Assembly (NCBI GenBank): GCA_031256725.1
Contig: JAIRQE010000009.1
Span: 58,543-90,542 of the forward strand
DNA length: 32,000 nt
Direction of reading: 5' to 3'
From: Propionibacteriaceae bacterium
GTDB taxonomy: Bacteria > Actinomycetota > Actinomycetes > Propionibacteriales > Propionibacteriaceae
Numbering within the stretch: the stretch's first letter is position 1; each line of letters starts with the position of its first letter. The position numbers and the translations under genes are program-made. Positions 25,583 to 32,000 of this stretch are shown here, piece by piece. The notes below the pieces were generated by a model, which was not told the DNA's origin, ran no database searches, and saw only the letters and a program-made list of their open reading frames with translations.

Positions 25583-26584
25583 ATGGAAACTCGTTCTTTT
25601 GGCTCGACTGGGCGCAATGTCAGTGTTATCGGTCTCGGATGTTGGCAATTCGGTGGCGACTGGGGTGAGGTCAGCGACCTTCAGGCCCTCAACATCCTCT
25701 CGACTGCTGTTGAATCCGGCGTGACTCTCATTGATACCGCTGATTGCTATGGTGATGGTCATTCCGAGGAACTGATCGGAGAATTCCTTTCCATGATTGG
25801 ATCTGCCGAGGATTTTGGACTCACAGTCATGACAAAGATGGGCCGCCTGGCTAACCCTCACATCGAGTTGGCCTACTGTTATGACAACTTCCGTGGCTGG
25901 TTGGATCGCTCCCGCAAGCTGTTGCGCATGGATCGAATCCCTCTGGTTCAACTTCATTGCCCACCAACACCGGTCTATTCCAACAACGAGGTTTATGACG
26001 CCCTGGATCGCCTAGTATCCGAGGATGTCATTGAGGCCTACGGAGTCTCCGTGGAAACCTGCGATGAGGCACTCACCGCCCTAGAACATAACATCGCCTC
26101 AATTCAGATCATCTGCAATATCCTGCGCCGAAAGCCCCTAGAAAAGGTACTGCCTGCCGCCAAGGCCAAGGGTGTGGCCATTATCGCCCGAGTGCCCTTG
26201 GCTTCTGGACTCCTCTCAGGTAAGTTCACCGAAACCACCACCTTCGCTCCCCAAGACCACCGTACTTTCAACCGTTTCGGGGAAGCCTTCGATGTCGGCG
26301 AAACCTTCTCCGGTGTCCCCTATGATCAAGGGGTCCAAGCCGGTCGCGAGGTGGCCAGGATTGCCGCTGAGATGCCAGGACAACCCACACCATCCCAGTT
26401 GGCTCTGCGCTGGCTCATCGACCAGGACGGAATCACCACAATCATCCCCGGCGCCTCCCGAGTAGAACAAGCACGCCTGAATGCTGAAGCCGCCACCCTT
26501 AAACCCCTCTCCCCCGAGATCCTAGACGAACTAGAACAGATCTACACCAAGTACGCAGCCCCCCACGTAGCCGACAAATGGTGA
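25583..26584 (+). CDS. Aldo/keto reductase family oxidoreductase
   Basis: 333 aa. GLGCWQFGG, the DTADCYGDGHSEE catalytic Asp/Tyr region, and QLALRWL...IPGASRVEQ at the C-terminus. Confidence 0.9.
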   Translation: METRSFGSTGRNVSVIGLGCWQFGGDWGEVSDLQALNILSTAVESGVTLIDTADCYGDGHSEELIGEFLSMIGSAEDFGLTVMTKMGRLANPHIELAYCYDNFRGWLDRSRKLLRMDRIPLVQLHCPPTPVYSNNEVYDALDRLVSEDVIEAYGVSVETCDEALTALEHNIASIQIICNILRRKPLEKVLPAAKAKGVAIIARVPLASGLLSGKFTETTTFAPQDHRTFNRFGEAFDVGETFSGVPYDQGVQAGREVARIAAEMPGQPTPSQLALRWLIDQDGITTIIPGASRVEQARLNAEAATLKPLSPEILDELEQIYTKYAAPHVADKW

Positions 26585-26622
26585 TGTGAACAATAAATGC
26601 TTCCTGGAAGAATAGTCATCCA

Positions 26623-26841
26623 TCATGCGTCATCCATCGTATCCTTGAGCCGCGTCATTTCAACATGATAACAAGCATTCGCGCTTCGCTTGATAGCGTT
26701 CAATCGTTCACATTCCACGTGAGCACGATCCTCACTCCACCATGCCGACACACACGTATAACATTCATGAGATGTATATTTATCAATGCGAACAATTAAG
26801 TAGATATGCCTATACTTTAGGTTAGGCTTGTTCATATTCAT
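26623..26841 (-). CDS. Small hypothetical protein (72 aa), putative immunity partner of the decayed cassette 6
   Basis: GGAGG lies 5 nt upstream of ATG 26841. The start overlaps by 20 nt the end of the upstream frameshifted reading frame. There are four Cys/His-containing positions but no recognised motif. Confidence 0.5.
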   Translation of the reverse strand: MNMNKPNLKYRHIYLIVRIDKYTSHECYTCVSAWWSEDRAHVECERLNAIKRSANACYHVEMTRLKDTMDDA

Positions 26842-27190
26842 TACTTCCTCCAGGTTCTGTAATCAATGAACCGAGATACTCACCAGTTCTAGAATCATAC
26901 ACATCACCCGTTCTACCGATTGCCACAGAATCAGCAGCTCCAACCCATTCCTCCATCTCTCATGCGATATCCAGGAGTGTCCATAAAACTATCTAAATAG
27001 TTAGCCAATTGATCACCCCCATATCGTTGGCCCACTGATGAGACTTATCACCTGGAACAGGATCAAAAGCAGTGATACCATCCCTAGTTCAACAGCGTCA
27101 ATAGGTTTATGGGGTTCATATCTCATCCACACCACGCCAAACCTTATGCGCCTCGGAAAAGTCCCTTTCTTAAGCTTGGAAAACGGTTCA
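26822..27190 (-). pseudogene. Frameshift-decayed toxin-tip remnant (cassette 6)
   Basis: In hand translation, three reading frames are open in staggered succession. They read ...KGTFPRRIRFGVVWMRYEPHKPIDAVEL / RDGITAFDPVPGDKSHQWANDMG / GDQLANYLDSFMDTPGYRMRDGGMGW / GAADSVAIGRTGDVYDSRTGEYLGSLITEPGGSNEYEQA*. This is a plausible globular domain only if about 3 frameshifts are repaired. It fills the otherwise empty gap between two cassette genes. Confidence 0.35.
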
Positions 27191-27664
27191 TCAGGTCTCA
27201 GTCATTGAATCTGAAGATTCAGATAAATACTTCGCCGCCAGTAACAACCGGAATTCTTGTCTATCTTCAACTGAAGCTAAAGCCTCATAAATGCCCTCAT
27301 GAACTGCGACCAATGGATCTGGATCAGTAACAAACAAGACAGCAGCCACGGCACGAGCCTTACGAAACATGTCCAGATAGTCTTCTTTTAACTGATCATG
27401 CTCAAATGCCTCAACCTCCGACAGGCGAAAATATAATTCATCATACTCTGTTGATAAATCTTCCAGATACCTTCTATCTTGCTCACTGGAAGACGCCCCT
27501 GATTCCAGCATCGAGAGAATAACTTCAATGCGTTCATCTTGAATCCCATTAAGAAAGATAGCTCTACGACAAACCTTTACAGCCAACAAACGATACCTTG
27601 TCTCATCAAGATACTCCAGATCCTTGACTAGATCTGGATATTCTGCAAATAACCTGGTCACCAT
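27191..27664 (-). CDS. Acidic all-helical hypothetical protein (157 aa), putative immunity protein of cassette 5
   Basis: Its ATG overlaps the stop of the upstream 73-aa ORF (ATGGTGA, 27658-27664). It is rich in E/D/L/R with a helical repeat-like character. Confidence 0.6.
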   Translation of the reverse strand: MVTRLFAEYPDLVKDLEYLDETRYRLLAVKVCRRAIFLNGIQDERIEVILSMLESGASSSEQDRRYLEDLSTEYDELYFRLSEVEAFEHDQLKEDYLDMFRKARAVAAVLFVTDPDPLVAVHEGIYEALASVEDRQEFRLLLAAKYLSESSDSMTET

Positions 27665-27879
27665 GGAACTCTTGCCGGTGTCACAATAGTAGCACCAGTT
27701 CTAACAATTTCTTCGACACAGTTGGGACAAACAGGACGCCCAGCCCCCAGAGTCAGACTGCCTCCAACTTCTTCTGCGTACTCTATGAGTTTAGTCTCGC
27801 CATTATGAATTATGACTCTAATGTCAACACCTTCACGAGTACCCTTCATCCAAACATCAGAGAAATCGACAAGATACAT
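27658..27879 (-). CDS. 73-aa ORF with a PVCPNC motif; putative small or truncated toxin tip of cassette 5
   Basis: Translationally coupled to the 157-aa ORF. It is separated from the upstream junction fragment by 87 nt that carry three in-frame stops. An alternative frame stays open across most of that gap. Confidence 0.4.
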   Translation of the reverse strand: MYLVDFSDVWMKGTREGVDIRVIIHNGETKLIEYAEEVGGSLTLGAGRPVCPNCVEEIVRTGATIVTPARVPW

Positions 27880-27966
27880 TGTCTCAATCCAATTCAGCTG
27901 GGGTCAATGCACGAACCGTACTAGACCTCAACTCCAAATCATGCTGCACCCGTGCAAGCTGCCCAT

Positions 27967-28359
27967 CTAGCACCAAAGCCTCCTTATGAGTAGAACCGCT
28001 GTGGCAGCATCCGAAGCCCTATCCGTAGTACGCGCCAAATCAAAAGCATTGGATGCAGTCCGAGCAGCATCAGCTATATCATCGATATGACCGACAGCAT
28101 TCACGACACCGCGAGCCATACCAGTGGGACTGATGAAACTCGTGACAGTCACAACACCATCAATAATGTTGTATATAGTTTCGTTGCCGCCCAGGAGATT
28201 GTCTTTGATGAAGTTCGTACCCGTGTGCTCGGCCACCATCTCGTTGACATCACGAGCTCCCAAATCCCCCAAACCAGGTATCGCGCTTTGTGAACAGCAC
28301 AAACCAACACCAAGAACACCCACACACAACAGAACCCAGATTTTATGCAAATAATACAT
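27967..28359 (-). CDS. 130-aa ORF: N-terminal hydrophobic segment plus a copy of the pre-toxin junction, ending prematurely
   Basis: Strong RBS (AAGAGGTGA, then ATG 28359). It contains the hydrophobic segment IWVLLCVGVLGVGLCC. Its C-terminal AVGHIDDIADAARTASNAFDLARTTDRASDAATAV aligns at 18/34 identities with VGHIDDAADTIRGVTNTLDTIKSVDKASDTATAI in the main toxin at 31897-31998. Confidence 0.55.
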   Translation of the reverse strand: MYYLHKIWVLLCVGVLGVGLCCSQSAIPGLGDLGARDVNEMVAEHTGTNFIKDNLLGGNETIYNIIDGVVTVTSFISPTGMARGVVNAVGHIDDIADAARTASNAFDLARTTDRASDAATAVLLIRRLWC

Positions 28360-28381
28360 ATATCACCTCTTTCGCGACCAC

Positions 28382-28417
28382 GCAATCAATGCTCACTTAG
28401 CAATCAATGCTCACTTA
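28382..28417. repeat. Perfect 18-bp tandem duplication (gcaatcaatgctcactta x2)
   Basis: Checked base by base: 28382-28399 equals 28400-28417. The second copy contains the stop codon of the 136-aa ORF (28411-28413). The first copy lies in the spacer before the next cassette. Confidence 0.9.
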
Positions 28418-28821
28418 TCAGCCCTCACCCGACTCCATTGAGTATCACACACTTGCGCATCTTCAAAAGACTGCTGCTGCAACAGCACATGGTCAACAAA
28501 CCACACAGGCAACCGAACCGCATGCTCTAAAACATAATGCTCCAGACCCTGCGGCCACATATAGCATCCATCAGACAAATCCATACAACCAAGAACTTCA
28601 CCACATATCCGACACACCGCTTTCCCAAGGTACACCCGAGCTATGAGACCACGACTAAGGTAATCAGCAACAACAGTTCGCTCACCAATCGACCACGCAA
28701 CATCAATCATCTCTTCAGGCCTCGGCCAGTTATCATCACCATTGGACCAATACCCAACCATTTCAAACCTCACAGGCAAAATACTAGCCTCCTGGTGTGA
28801 AAACCTGCCAAGTACCCCCAT
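28411..28821 (-). CDS. 136-aa hypothetical protein, putative immunity/partner protein of cassette 4
   Basis: Starts 9 nt after the stop of the 95-aa ORF. It contains a Cys cluster followed by CRICGEVLGCMDLSDGCYMWPQGLEHYVLEHAVRLPVWF. No family was assigned. Confidence 0.55.
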   Translation of the reverse strand: MGVLGRFSHQEASILPVRFEMVGYWSNGDDNWPRPEEMIDVAWSIGERTVVADYLSRGLIARVYLGKAVCRICGEVLGCMDLSDGCYMWPQGLEHYVLEHAVRLPVWFVDHVLLQQQSFEDAQVCDTQWSRVRADK

Positions 28822-28830
28822 CTAGCATCG

Positions 28831-29118
28831 TCATATTTCCCTACCACTTACAAGAAAAACTGATGTCGGAGCTTTCACACCTACACCAAGAAAATCAGCC
28901 AACTGCTGTGCGATTGGTGCACCCCCTTCAACGGGACATCCCCCAGTCGAGCACGACAACAGACGCACATCCTGACCTTGCCACGCCGGTTGCTGTCGAA
29001 TTATCTGCTCAACTTCATCCGCCGACATTCCCGAAACTGTAGTAGGTGTGCCATGCCCAATGACATCGAAATAGCCTTCTTCTCCTGGGATTTTTAGCAT
29101 TTTGATTCGGGCTCCCAT
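28831..29118 (-). CDS. 95-aa ORF with a GHG...LLSC His/Cys dyad arrangement (clan-CD / CPD-like pattern); putative toxin tip of cassette 4
   Basis: YFDVIGHGTPTTVSGMSADEVEQIIRQQPAWQGQDVRLLSCSTG has a hydrophobic strand + GHG, 34 residues, then a hydrophobic strand + (S)C. The same order and context occurs in C80 cysteine protease domains and CHAT/caspase-fold enzymes. An alternative start at ATG 29100 has GGGAG upstream. Confidence 0.45.
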   Translation of the reverse strand: MGARIKMLKIPGEEGYFDVIGHGTPTTVSGMSADEVEQIIRQQPAWQGQDVRLLSCSTGGCPVEGGAPIAQQLADFLGVGVKAPTSVFLVSGREI

Positions 29119-29204
29119 CAGGGTTAGGAATTACATCTCCATCTAGAATATGGTGACGGCCATCATCCGCTTAATTGCTTTTGAAATTCAATGGGGTTTG
29201 ATAA

Positions 29205-29666
29205 CTACTCAAAGTACTTGGGGCGAGCATCCTTGAGCCCTTGGGGTACCTTTGCATCCTGGTGATCAGCATAAGATTTTTCGACCCAGAAACCATCTTC
29301 TTTCACCCAAAAATAAGCACCCACATCTCCACTGTACCCCCACACAATATCTTCTTCATCCGCCCAATAAACATAATTCTTGTCCCTCGCACGGAATATC
29401 AGATCCGCCTCAAACGGTGGCTCACTTCCATCAACAGTCACAATAAATAACTTATAGCTTCTCACGCCATCATCATCGTAATTCTCAATCACAGCCTCAT
29501 ACTGCCCACTAGGCGAGACGAAAGGTCCATCATAATCAAACAACTCATGATTATTAATCTCAGGAACCTCGTTGCGACTCGTTAACCCTCCGTCACGCCC
29601 AATCGTACAACCTGTAAAGACGCACACCACAACAGCACACAGAGTTATTATTTTGATTCTTTTCAT
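29205..29666 (-). CDS. Lipoprotein of unknown function (153 aa), putative envelope-located immunity protein of cassette 3
   Basis: MKRIKIITLCAVVVCVFTGC is a signal peptide with the lipobox F-T-G-C. AAGGA lies 6 nt upstream of ATG 29666, which is preferred over the track start at 29705. The mature part is rich in D/E/Y/W. Confidence 0.7.
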   Translation of the reverse strand: MKRIKIITLCAVVVCVFTGCTIGRDGGLTSRNEVPEINNHELFDYDGPFVSPSGQYEAVIENYDDDGVRSYKLFIVTVDGSEPPFEADLIFRARDKNYVYWADEEDIVWGYSGDVGAYFWVKEDGFWVEKSYADHQDAKVPQGLKDARPKYFE

Positions 29667-29857
29667 TAGTATTCCTTTCTCGTTATGTGTTGGGAATTTG
29701 GACATGCAGACCTATATGGCATGATATTTGCATGGGGATCCTCTATGTCATTCGCCCAATCAACTGCGGCAATAGTCGCATCCAGAATCCTCATTGTCCG
29801 CTCCACATCCTTCACCTTGCGTACCAGGCGAGATGAATCTACGGGTCGTAGCACCAA
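29666..29857 (-). CDS. Possible 43-63-aa remnant ORF (truncated toxin tip of cassette 3?)
   Basis: It exactly fills the gap between two cassette genes. Its TAA overlaps the lipoprotein ATG (TAATG, 29664-29668). There are no motifs, so it may be non-coding. Confidence 0.25.
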   Translation of the reverse strand: MVLRPVDSSRLVRKVKDVERTMRILDATIAAVDWANDIEDPHANIMPYRSACPNSQHITRKEY

Positions 29858-30360
29858 AACGAACCTCGCGTAGCCACAAGATATAACTCACCATAGGGAT
29901 CACCATAATCTTCCGTATCAATAACTAGACGATATCCCCCCGAGAAAGTAAACACAGGCATATGCCCGTCCTCCCTCTCCGCAGTAACACCCAGAAGAAA
30001 GCGACCACCAAGCATGCCTAGCAAGGGATCGTCACACCAAACATCCTGCGTCTTATCCGACATAACCATTCGATCATCCAACCATAACTCCCACGGACAC
30101 ATAACAGTAAGATACCATTTTGCAAGTTCGCCGTAGTCTTCACTATACCCAAATGAAGAATGTCCCCCAATATTAGGAAAACCACTTATCACCGTGGCCC
30201 AATCTATACGAGCCGGAAATGCCAAGTTCATCCACTCAATTGGCGGCGGCAAAGTACTTCTCCACGTTGAGCCGGAAATCAAAGCCCTACGAACAACTGG
30301 AGCCAACAAAGCCTTGCGAACAACCCGAGTTGGCAACGCTTTACGAACAACCTGCATCAT
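29839..30360 (-). CDS. 173-aa hypothetical protein, putative immunity protein of the HINT-toxin cassette 2
   Basis: ATGA overlap with the stop of the HINT ORF (30357-30360). The N-terminal 30 residues are three VVR(K/R)AL repeats encoded by a 27-bp tandem repeat. The globular part begins about at MNLAFPARIDW (alternative start 30231). Confidence 0.6.
   Translation of the reverse strand: MMQVVRKALPTRVVRKALLAPVVRRALISGSTWRSTLPPPIEWMNLAFPARIDWATVISGFPNIGGHSSFGYSEDYGELAKWYLTVMCPWELWLDDRMVMSDKTQDVWCDDPLLGMLGGRFLLGVTAEREDGHMPVFTFSGGYRLVIDTEDYGDPYGELYLVATRGSFWCYDP
30271..30351. repeat. 27-bp tandem repeat x3 (17-nt core aaagccctacgaacaac, 14-15/17 identity between units)
   Basis: Units 30271-30297, 30298-30324 and 30325-30351 were aligned by hand. 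They are in phase with the reading frame, giving VVRKALPTR / VVRKALLAP / VVRRALISG. Confidence 0.85.
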
Positions 30361-31277
30361 GGGTTCAAATCCATATGCGTCTTATCCCTCGCCTGCTGAG
30401 ACCAGTCAGACGGTTTAGGTCTTGGCGACTGTGGCACCCGGCCGGTGAACGGATCAACAGGGTTCGCATTAGCGTCTCCAAAGAGTACACGTTCCACATG
30501 GTAGCCATCAGCATCCATCACTCTGGCAGTTGTCCCGTCCGGTAGAGTGTAAATAATACCCGAACCCCTGTCTGCGGCCCTTGATGAAGTTGCGACACGC
30601 TGTAACCCCTCCTCCAACTCAGTTCGACTAGTTGGTATCACAGTCCCGTTAGCATCTGCCATGAATCGAGGTGGCGTGACTGGTACCACAGTCCCGTTAA
30701 CATCTACTGTGAAGGTTGCTCGTGGACATGTGAAATTATGAACATTGATTTCACTATTGCCAACATAGTAGGTGTGTGGCCCAGTAACCGTCAGGTTGTA
30801 GACAATCTGTTCACCGTGAGGCCGGGACATCCCACGAACAGTAAGTGTCGACCCATCCGCCGTGAGCAGCAGGTCACCTGGTTCCAAATGATCTGTACGA
30901 ACATAGGCTCGTTTACTGTCAACCCACCACGGATGCGAGGCCGTGGTCTCAATAGTCGTACCGTCACCTAAAGTCAAGATCACAACATCATCGGTATGAG
31001 GCCAGGTTGCGGTCACAGTTTCAACAGATTGAACACCCGTACCAGGATCAAACGCGGTAACACTATCACCAGCCTGGATATCCCCAATAGGTTTCCGGGT
31101 ACCATCCCCCATCAACACAGGAGTATCCGCCGTAAACGACCTCAAACACGACGACGGCTTCGCAGTATTGACTTGCGACGGTGACGTACCCGCATCAACC
31201 TTCGACAGTGTTCCGATCAATTCATACCGCATCAGCATCAGTCGGTCCAAGCACTTCGTCAACCACGCCGTGGCCAA
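30357..31277 (-). CDS. Orphan polymorphic-toxin module: pretoxin HINT domain followed by a ~125-aa C-terminal domain of unknown function
   Basis: SFTADTPVLMGDGTRKPIGDIQAGDSVTAFDPGTGVQ...TTASHPWWV...HLEPGDLLLTADG...IVYNLTVTGPHTYYVGNSEINVHN is a textbook Hint/pretoxin-HINT pattern ending in the HN cleavage motif. There is no N-terminal secretion or repeat region. The likely translational start is ATG 31238 or 31232, overlapping the upstream ORF end. Confidence 0.85.
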   Translation of the reverse strand: MATAWLTKCLDRLMLMRYELIGTLSKVDAGTSPSQVNTAKPSSCLRSFTADTPVLMGDGTRKPIGDIQAGDSVTAFDPGTGVQSVETVTATWPHTDDVVILTLGDGTTIETTASHPWWVDSKRAYVRTDHLEPGDLLLTADGSTLTVRGMSRPHGEQIVYNLTVTGPHTYYVGNSEINVHNFTCPRATFTVDVNGTVVPVTPPRFMADANGTVIPTSRTELEEGLQRVATSSRAADRGSGIIYTLPDGTTARVMDADGYHVERVLFGDANANPVDPFTGRVPQSPRPKPSDWSQQARDKTHMDLNP

Positions 31278-31548
31278 TCACACGCGATGCTTCACTAATC
31301 TCAAAACAGTCACCCACCGAAACATTGCTACCAAAGTAAGACCAAAACGGGAACTCGATTCGCATTTTCAACGTTTCTCCAGGGTAATGACGACACTCGT
31401 CACCGTATCGATGTATTCCAGTGGTTAGAAAGTCTGCCCATTCAAAGCGATGGTGCGGCTGATAGCCGTCCACTACCCCTCTTACCTTCGGATGGGGTAC
31501 ATCAGTTTCGAAGGTAATTGTTGCCAATATCGCTCGCACAGCCGTCAC
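31222..31548 (-). CDS. 108-aa EF-Tu domain-III-like beta-barrel protein; putative immunity protein of the main toxin tip
   Basis: The GTG start abuts the toxin stop (TAG|GTG at 31549/31548). By-eye collinearity with the EF-Tu C-terminal domain covers four motifs. GYQPHHRF matches GYRPQFYF and WAD..TTG matches TTDVTG. YPGETLKMRIEF matches MPGDN..M.V.L, and FEISEASRVIGHGVVDEVL matches FAIREGGRTVGAGVV.KIL. Motif spacings differ by only 1 and 4 residues. Confidence 0.65.
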   Translation of the reverse strand: MTAVRAILATITFETDVPHPKVRGVVDGYQPHHRFEWADFLTTGIHRYGDECRHYPGETLKMRIEFPFWSYFGSNVSVGDCFEISEASRVIGHGVVDEVLGPTDADAV

Positions 31549-32000
31549 CTACAGTGCCTGCCGAATAACGGTGACAATGTCATTGAACGTTGCCAACTGA
31601 TCTTCATGGACAGTGAGCACACCACTTTTGAAAAACCACGGATCAATAGTCTGGCTTATGTCTAGCCCATCTATCGCCGCTAGGCTGCTGGTTGGCACAT
31701 CTGCAGCGACAATCGCCGCATAATTAGAATTAGTATCAGCAAATGCCAGCGTCTCTTCAAAATCAAATCCAAATTGCTTCATCTCTGCCCCATTCGGTGG
31801 AAGGCTAAACTGTCCCGTACTCATAATAGACTCATACTCGTTAGGGTCTACGGCACGGAAAACAGTTGTCGTATCGCTAGTCTTATCCGCATTCCTAATC
31901 GCAGTGGCTGTGTCACTGGCTTTATCAACACTCTTGATAGTATCCAACGTATTCGTGACACCCCGGATTGTGTCTGCTGCATCATCAATATGTCCGACAG
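31549..32000 (-). CDS. C-terminal tip of a polymorphic toxin (ORF open past the right window edge); toxin domain of unknown type
   Basis: The track ORF 31549..31947 extends in frame, with no stop, to base 32000. Hand translation reads VGHIDDAADTIRGVTNT-LDTIKSVDKASDTATAIRNADKTSDTTT. This T/D/S/A-rich linker is followed by a ~105-aa domain, VFRAVDPNEYESIMSTGQFSLPPNG...VIRQAL*. Confidence 0.7.
   Translation of the reverse strand, partial: VGHIDDAADTIRGVTNTLDTIKSVDKASDTATAIRNADKTSDTTTVFRAVDPNEYESIMSTGQFSLPPNGAEMKQFGFDFEETLAFADTNSNYAAIVAADVPTSSLAAIDGLDISQTIDPWFFKSGVLTVHEDQLATFNDIVTVIRQAL

Follow-up and report, generated by a model that had tools for sequence, protein, structure and literature searches.

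The polymorphic toxin TreTu of Salmonella is an Rhs toxin that ADP-ribosylates the elongation factor EF-Tu at Asp21 (PMC9825190). Residues R6, E12, S25, H31, F41 and W68 form its NAD+ site, R6 and E12 being NAD+ contacts that are essential (PMC9825190). TriTu, encoded next to it, is the immunity protein that inhibits this toxin. To our knowledge, an interbacterial toxin is normally countered by an immunity protein that bears no relation to the target of the toxin. Here, we analyzed a window of 32,000 nucleotides from a Propionibacteriaceae bacterium (contig JAIRQE010000009.1, positions 58,543 to 90,542), in which the 3' end of a minus-strand toxin gene is followed directly by a small gene whose product is homologous to domain 3 (domain III) of EF-Tu. 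As a polymorphic toxin paired with an immunity protein, the system is familiar in kind; its unusual side is that the immunity family comes from a domain of the probable target and is combined with a new family of toxin tips. No description of an EF-Tu-like immunity protein was found in open-access papers and preprints, and EF-Tu is unmentioned in the 2012 census of polymorphic toxin systems.

The features at the center of this analysis are the following:

31222..31548, minus strand: predicted immunity gene whose product, of 108 aa when read from the first GTG, is a beta-barrel like EF-Tu domain 3; evidence from the open reading frame (ORF), profiles and structure
31549..31872, minus strand: C-terminal toxin tip, 107 aa plus the TAG stop, starting TTTVFRAVDPNEYESIMSTG; new family, probably a distant relative of the TreTu ADP-ribosyltransferase
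31873..32000, minus strand: pre-toxin linker in the same ORF as the tip, VGHIDDAADTIRGV...DKASDTATAIRNADKTSD

A free-standing homologue of EF-Tu domain 3

The upstream toxin frame is open on the minus strand from the window edge at 32000 down to a TAG at 31551-31549, and the carrier toxin gene continues past position 32000, where the frame is still open. The toxin stop abuts the immunity ORF with zero spacing and in the same frame (...CAG GCA CTG TAG/GTG ACG GCT GTG CGA..., the slash marking the boundary). The Shine-Dalgarno-like sequence AGGTGA spans the toxin TAG. Since it lies 5 nt before the second GTG (31539-31537), and since the homologues and the NCBI annotation (P0001, 105 aa, from a Propionibacteriaceae metagenome-assembled genome) also begin at 31539, the true immunity gene is probably 31222-31539, encoding 105 aa. 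No terminator-like site was found between the toxin and immunity genes, and this arrangement suggests that the immunity gene is probably translationally coupled to the toxin gene upstream. Its product is free-standing, with its own start and stop, and lacks the G domain and domain 2 of the three-domain GTPase.

As a single sequence, the immunity ORF has no match in Pfam, NCBIfam, PADLOC, PHROGs or PDB; the 27-bit cut-off of the Pfam model GTP_EFTU_D3 (PF03143) was not reached, and no Pfam family matched at E ≤ 1. The similarity to EF-Tu is real, yet visible only through profiles or structure. Seven close homologues share 53–99% identity with the ORF, and 35 columns are invariant among the eight closest sequences. 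A profile built from these eight sequences was searched against 177,635 PDB sequences and gave 54 matches at E ≤ 10, 51 of them to EF-Tu; these matches cover the whole of domain 3 (residues ~320–404) to the chain end, with a best E-value of 0.0018, and EF-Tu domain 3 was the sole match among natural PDB proteins. The profile of the 71-member family, which includes the window ORF, matched EF-Tu domain 3 in PDB at E = 2e-18, with no other natural protein at E < 0.4 and no eEF1A or SelB chain. Forty-two of the 71 members match GTP_EFTU_D3 individually (best E = 1e-15), and a hidden Markov model (HMM) of the window subfamily matches residues 323–412 of E. coli TufA (E = 9e-7). Thus, of the Pfam and profile search that an earlier sequence-only reading of this DNA had proposed, the part using the ORF alone came out negative, and the part using profiles, whether of eight or of 71 sequences, came out in favor of EF-Tu domain 3.

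A direct BLASTP comparison with E. coli TufA aligned 74 residues at 31% identity and with 5 gap positions, as far as the last EF-Tu residue (pairwise E = 4e-5). The four motif pairs that the sequence-only reading had matched by eye were all reproduced in this alignment, as was the Val at the position aligned with Thr382 of EF-Tu. The motifs shared with EF-Tu are GY.P, PG[DE] and E..R.VG.G, and the window subfamily carries a signature of its own (GY.PHH.F, HYPGE, FPxW and VSVGD.FEI).

The structural comparison agreed with the profiles. An AlphaFold2 model of the immunity protein, built from the eight-sequence alignment, is all-beta with a predicted local distance difference test (pLDDT) score of 84.8, and it superposes on EF-Tu as the sequence-only reading had expected: the top 50 of 50 Foldseek matches in PDB were EF-Tu, with E-values from 3e-5, query TM-scores (TMq) of 0.62–0.71, 21–24% identity and a root-mean-square deviation of ~2.4 Å. 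These results confirm that the immunity ORF encodes a stand-alone protein that is homologous to domain 3 of bacterial EF-Tu and has its fold, though diverged in sequence; they bear out the resemblance that had been proposed. One could still argue that the resemblance arose by chance or that the ORF is no real gene, given that the single sequence has no Pfam or NCBIfam match and that its first GTG abuts the upstream stop in the same frame. We regard this as negligibly probable: homologues occur in Actinobacteria, Beta- and Gammaproteobacteria, the eight closest keep the 35 invariant columns, the structure model is confident, and nearly everything that the profile and fold searches retrieve is EF-Tu.

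The toxin tip and its pairing with the immunity gene

The same tip of ~107 aa lies directly upstream of a domain-3-like gene in 14 independent loci, i.e., in every informative locus retrieved (the window, L004, L006, L007, L010–L016, L018, L019 and L027 of Pseudomonas aeruginosa). These paired loci span Actinobacteria, Betaproteobacteria and Gammaproteobacteria. In the metagenomic locus L004, the tip is 85% identical to that of the window and its carrier has the same pre-toxin region, while L006 holds an orphan tip with 46% identity in a locus that also contains an Rhs/PT-HINT toxin and an integrase. In L007 (3619-4282), L008 and L009, the toxin domain is encoded by a separate gene of 105 aa that has its own start codon and precedes the domain-3-like gene, and the pair lies directly after ABC-transporter permease genes; these are free two-gene pairs resembling toxin–antitoxin (TA) systems, and the toxin in them is no part of a large secreted protein. 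Among the loci from scanned reference genomes, 9 of 11 were paired, all in Burkholderiales, with the tip forming the last ~105 residues of ORFs longer than 1000 aa. The four large Burkholderiales carriers scanned were of the CdiA type (DUF637, DUF6862) or Rhs-repeat proteins, and the P. aeruginosa tip (L027) sits on a toxin of 2206 aa. Overall, the tip was found on CdiA-type (DUF637/DUF6862), Rhs-repeat, FG-GAP/Rhs and actinobacterial toxins and as a stand-alone 105-aa gene.

Four further loci (L002/L003, where a degraded PT-HINT remnant precedes the gene, L005, L017 and the fragment L020) carry the domain-3-like gene without the tip, which is the pattern of orphan immunity genes. In L002 (870-1142; 1203-1523), the domain-3-like gene stands behind a frameshifted PT-HINT remnant (…TATWPHSDTVVTLTLGDGSQVETTAS…) that resembles the orphan cassette of the window described below; the expected tip is missing there, and a different pair of toxin tip and immunity gene lies upstream.

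The pairwise-identity matrices of tips and partners are strongly correlated (Mantel r = 0.84; none of 5000 permutations as high). Tip and partner have therefore been inherited and have diverged as one cassette, although such a correlation alone is no proof of physical interaction. Because the two genes adjoin with zero spacing, because the pairing is conserved in 14 loci on varied carriers, and because orphan copies and co-variation are seen, we strongly infer that the domain-3-like protein is the cognate immunity protein of the upstream tip; gene position and conserved pairing thus uphold the immunity assignment made in the sequence-only reading.

These loci also bear on the possibility that the protein is an accessory factor rather than an antidote, namely a chaperone, a co-toxin or a cofactor that imitates EF-Tu in toxin activation or delivery. 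There is precedent in Tse6, CdiA-CTs and Serratia Rhs2, for which EF-Tu serves as a cofactor or helps in entry. However, the gene occupies the canonical immunity position, it also stands in a TA-style arrangement beside a stand-alone 105-aa toxin gene, and its orphan copies without a toxin are typical of immunity genes and would be pointless for a chaperone. We consider an accessory role very improbable.

The tip itself belongs to a family of which no member matches any Pfam model. With a profile of three tip sequences, TreTu (7ZHL/7ZHM) was the best natural match in PDB (E = 0.1–0.24). This HMMER match was lost with deeper tip profiles of 6 and 13 sequences, and we therefore relied on profile–profile alignment with hhalign and a shuffle null, using TreTu-family sequences recovered from metagenomes. 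The alignment between the tip and TreTu families had a probability of 78% and a score of 34.4, with 32% identity over 62 columns. The 200 column shuffles scored 11.1 ± 2.2 (maximum 24.4) and the reversed alignment scored 9.2, which places the observed score 10 standard deviations above the null. The alignment covers the two toxin domains from their very first residue, and each domain begins immediately at the toxin junction. Within the alignment, R6 and E12 of TreTu align with an invariant Arg and Glu of the tip at equal spacing, and F41 aligns with a conserved F/Y. Outside the aligned part, the tips share the motif IDP[FWY]IF (W in the window), whose aromatic residue is a possible equivalent of W68. 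In a Foldseek search of 350,542 chains with the AlphaFold2 model of the tip, used as a ranking only, TreTu chains took the top four places (probability 0.85–0.95, E ~0.06–0.13), followed by the ADP-ribosyltransferase-fold proteins Tpt1/KptA, CC0527 and diphtheria toxin.

Several observations leave the link to TreTu weak. None of the 13 tip sequences matches the Pfam model TreTu_C (PF24691) at E ≤ 0.5, and TreTu itself and a 47%-identical homologue matched it at 2e-44 and 2e-30; the tip is thus not a member of TreTu_C as defined. To this must be added the loss of the HMMER match on deepening the profile and the poor quality of the tip model (pLDDT 46). The alignment with TreTu is limited to the first ~62 residues of the tip and leaves out the last third, and two residues of the NAD+ site are not conserved in the tip family (H31 is replaced by M/I, and S25 by P/G/L). 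Weighing both sides, we think it likely that the tip represents a new family of distant TreTu-like ADP-ribosyltransferases, and we infer with moderate confidence that it acts on EF-Tu. This makes EF-Tu a credible target, as the sequence-only reading had suggested, by way of an Rhs ADP-ribosyltransferase that it had named only in passing.

The toxin on which that reading had leaned more heavily was Doc, which phosphorylates EF-Tu at Thr382, a residue in a loop of domain 3 to which SRVIGHG of the immunity protein aligns. It had taken the Val opposite Thr382 as the mark of a non-modifiable copy of the target. This argument did not survive: the tip has no similarity to Fic/Doc, and the family shows no constraint on the residue that follows the conserved Arg. 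A Doc/Fic-type kinase was accordingly rejected as a candidate for the tip, no Fic similarity having been found.

Proposed neutralization and the wider family

Our working hypothesis for neutralization is mimicry of the target or of its docking site. In this reading, which we favor while leaving about equal room for doubt, an EF-Tu-derived immunity protein would neutralize a TreTu-like tip by standing in for the target. The tip would use NAD+ and ADP-ribosylate either EF-Tu itself or an EF-Tu-containing complex, and translation would stop in the rival cell. The tip or its ancestor would have had an affinity for an EF-Tu surface that includes domain 3. The immunity protein would have arisen from a duplicated domain 3 of a bacterial EF-Tu, captured as a tight-binding inhibitor. 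In the producer cell, the translationally coupled immunity product would bind the tip one-to-one and occupy its docking or active-site surface. The blocking surface would be the one inherited from EF-Tu domain 3, replacing the part of EF-Tu on which the toxin or its ancestor docks. Since an EF-Tu-derived antidote is found together with a probable relative of an EF-Tu modifier, a captured domain 3 would be the simplest joint model; if the two were unrelated, their meeting would be an unlikely coincidence.

The mimicry hypothesis draws some support from domain fusions in relatives. In P0038 (417 aa), a Tri1-like ADP-ribosylarginine hydrolase (ADP_ribosyl_GH, 4e-74) is fused to a domain-3 module. 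In P0023 (143 aa), which is near the window subfamily, the domain-3-like part is fused to the C-terminal domain of ribosomal protein L7/L12 (1e-22), and P0138 (211 aa) combines a domain-3-like part with a weaker match to the same L7/L12 domain (3e-3). The L7/L12 C-terminal domain binds helix D of EF-Tu, which is also the proposed anchor of TreTu.

Other evidence weighs against mimicry. TreTu modifies Asp21 in the G domain (domain 1) of EF-Tu, and its proposed anchor is helix D and switch I, not domain 3 (PMC9825190). The claim of the sequence-only reading that EF-Tu domain III is the modified site accordingly finds no support. The motifs common to the immunity protein and EF-Tu belong to the core of the fold. 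TriTu inhibits TreTu as a beta-sheet lid, and a beta-barrel could do likewise without mimicry. We also examined whether the immunity protein could be TriTu-like, and this candidate was rejected: the domain-3-like HMM gave E > 0.2 against four proteins in the TriTu position, and the hhalign probability was 0.4%. Finally, among members of the broad family examined in context, P0165, P0181 and P0180 adjoin no recognizable toxin, P0165 being the case that tells against the hypothesis.

The main rival to mimicry follows from these points. The protein may be a cognate immunity protein whose EF-Tu ancestry is incidental, the barrel acting as a lid over the active-site cleft of a toxin that never contacts domain 3. 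A flat beta-sheet lid is how TriTu, unrelated in sequence, neutralizes TreTu; TreTu is modeled on helix D and switch I, and the GY.P, PG[DE] and E..R.VG.G motifs are part of the fold core. Immunity proteins have been recruited from many folds. Against the incidental lid, the recruited fold happens to be a domain of the likely target, a coincidence that would have to be explained, and relatives are fused to the EF-Tu-interacting L7/L12 C-terminal domain (P0023, P0138) and to an ADP-ribosylhydrolase (P0038). We judge the incidental lid possible but less probable than mimicry.

The same fusions raise a further alternative, in which the domain-3-like protein attaches to EF-Tu or to the translation machinery and covers the site attacked by the toxin, assisted in some relatives by the L7/L12 domain. 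Such target protection would account for the existence of L7/L12 fusions, one of them (P0023) near the window subfamily, and for the fact that L7/L12 binds at helix D, where TreTu is also proposed to anchor. However, the partner keeps pace with the toxin in its divergence and follows it (r = 0.84), which fits binding to the toxin and not to the conserved EF-Tu, and stoichiometric shielding of an abundant essential factor would be costly. Nearly all characterized immunity proteins that we know of bind their toxin. We therefore hold target protection to be improbable and return to mimicry as the favored reading.

Beyond the window subfamily, the eight-sequence profile retrieved 319 clusters at E ≤ 1e-3 from 1.84 billion representatives. 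Most of these clusters are free-standing proteins of ~100 aa whose motifs are nearer still to EF-Tu (..EEGGR.TP..SGYRPQ.KF), and many of them match GTP_EFTU_D3 directly. The name “EF-Tu C-terminal domain-related protein” is given to part of the broad group in UniRef/NCBI, with no function recorded. A tblastn search of plasmids with a broad-family member returned mostly genuine tuf genes and was uninformative for context. As the broad-family members inspected lack an adjacent recognizable toxin, we claim an immunity role for the window subfamily only. The setting of P0181 (255 aa; L032–L034, 5001-5768), in which an N-terminal domain without known family precedes the EF-Tu domain 3, consists of co-oriented unannotated genes in an integrative element with a primase, P22_AR_N and an HTH_17 excisionase-like gene; it may be an acquired immunity-gene array.

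More tentatively, free-standing copies of EF-Tu domain 3 might form a widespread, hitherto unrecognized class of antidotes made from pieces of the target, acting as decoys against EF-Tu-directed toxins. We doubt this extension more than we credit it; it would take in a high-affinity stand-in for a TreTu-like docking surface, the hydrolase and L7/L12 combinations, and the several hundred “EF-Tu C-terminal domain-related” proteins.

If mimicry is true, an antidote copied from a domain of the target would represent a new evolutionary route to immunity, and the ancestry of an immunity protein could point to the target of an uncharacterized toxin. The analysis also defines two uncharacterized families, the tip carried by CdiA, Rhs and actinobacterial proteins and its EF-Tu-domain-3-like partner. 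For the unstudied “EF-Tu C-terminal domain-related” proteins, it offers an initial clue to function, and it nominates a candidate second, divergent branch of EF-Tu-directed ADP-ribosyltransferases.

The surrounding array and known systems

The last 6 kb of the window form a minus-strand array of small genes with the layout of a polymorphic-toxin locus. Besides the tip and its partner, the array includes the following features:

30357..31277, minus strand: orphan toxin cassette with a pretoxin-HINT domain (PT-HINT, E = 2e-16) and a ~120-aa C-terminal tip without known family
29839..30360, minus strand: 173-aa ORF with a 4-nt overlap with the stop of the PT-HINT cassette; no family match, role from position only
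27967..28359, minus strand: orphan pre-toxin fragment of the same toxin type, a 130-aa ORF; VNEMVAEHTGTNFIKD is common with the L004 carrier (E = 5e-8)

The ORF of the orphan PT-HINT cassette has its start within the immunity gene, whose last 56 nt it overlaps, and the 173-aa ORF that follows may be the immunity gene of this cassette. The pre-toxin fragment contains the junction AVGHIDDIADAARTAS...DRASDAATAV, with the counterpart VGHIDD...DKASDTATAI before the main tip (31950-31998, minus strand). The AVGHIDD junction is common to the 27967..28359 ORF and to 31981-31998, and this shared junction is likely to be a recombination point for tip swapping. Two small minus-strand ORFs nearby, 28831-29118 (95 aa) and 28411-28821 (136 aa), gave only sub-threshold matches (DUF6668 and DUF7919) and may be another degraded pair of toxin fragment and immunity gene.

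The remainder of the window is ordinary actinobacterial chromosome (Mfd, HrpA, ProS, NusA and serine hydroxymethyltransferase). The G+C content is 0.47–0.50 in 26001-32000, where the GC skew is strongly negative, versus 0.52–0.56 elsewhere. The toxin/immunity array thus looks like a compositionally distinct island beside housekeeping genes.

Among known systems, CdiA-CT from NC101 and EC869, Tse6, Serratia Rhs2 and Doc-Phd resemble the present one in that their toxins bind or modify EF-Tu. They differ in both components: the tip has no similarity to the tRNase, NADase, HNH or Fic folds of these toxins, and none of their immunity proteins or antitoxins resembles EF-Tu. Tri1, an ADP-ribosylarginine hydrolase, likewise provides immunity against an ADP-ribosyltransferase toxin, the type VI secretion system effector Tre1, and P0038 is a Tri1-like fusion. 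The window protein, in contrast, has no hydrolase domain, and protection would therefore have to come from binding and not from reversal of the modification.

The closest parallel is TreTu-TriTu of the Salmonella Typhimurium Rhs-main locus (7ZHL/7ZHM). In both systems, a polymorphic-toxin tip of ~110 aa is directly followed by an immunity gene of ~90–105 aa. The tip has in common with TreTu the Arg and Glu that are essential in TreTu, an aromatic residue, the predicted beta1-alpha1-beta2 order and a C-terminal helix, and both systems point to EF-Tu, the candidate target of the window tip. The immunity proteins set them apart, as TriTu is a five-stranded sheet with two helices, whereas the window protein is an EF-Tu domain-3 barrel. 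With EF-Tu domain 3 (GTP_EFTU_D3) itself, the window protein shares the beta-barrel fold and collinear motifs; in EF-Tu this domain is part of a GTPase, whereas the window protein stands alone and its subfamily has diverged below Pfam detection.

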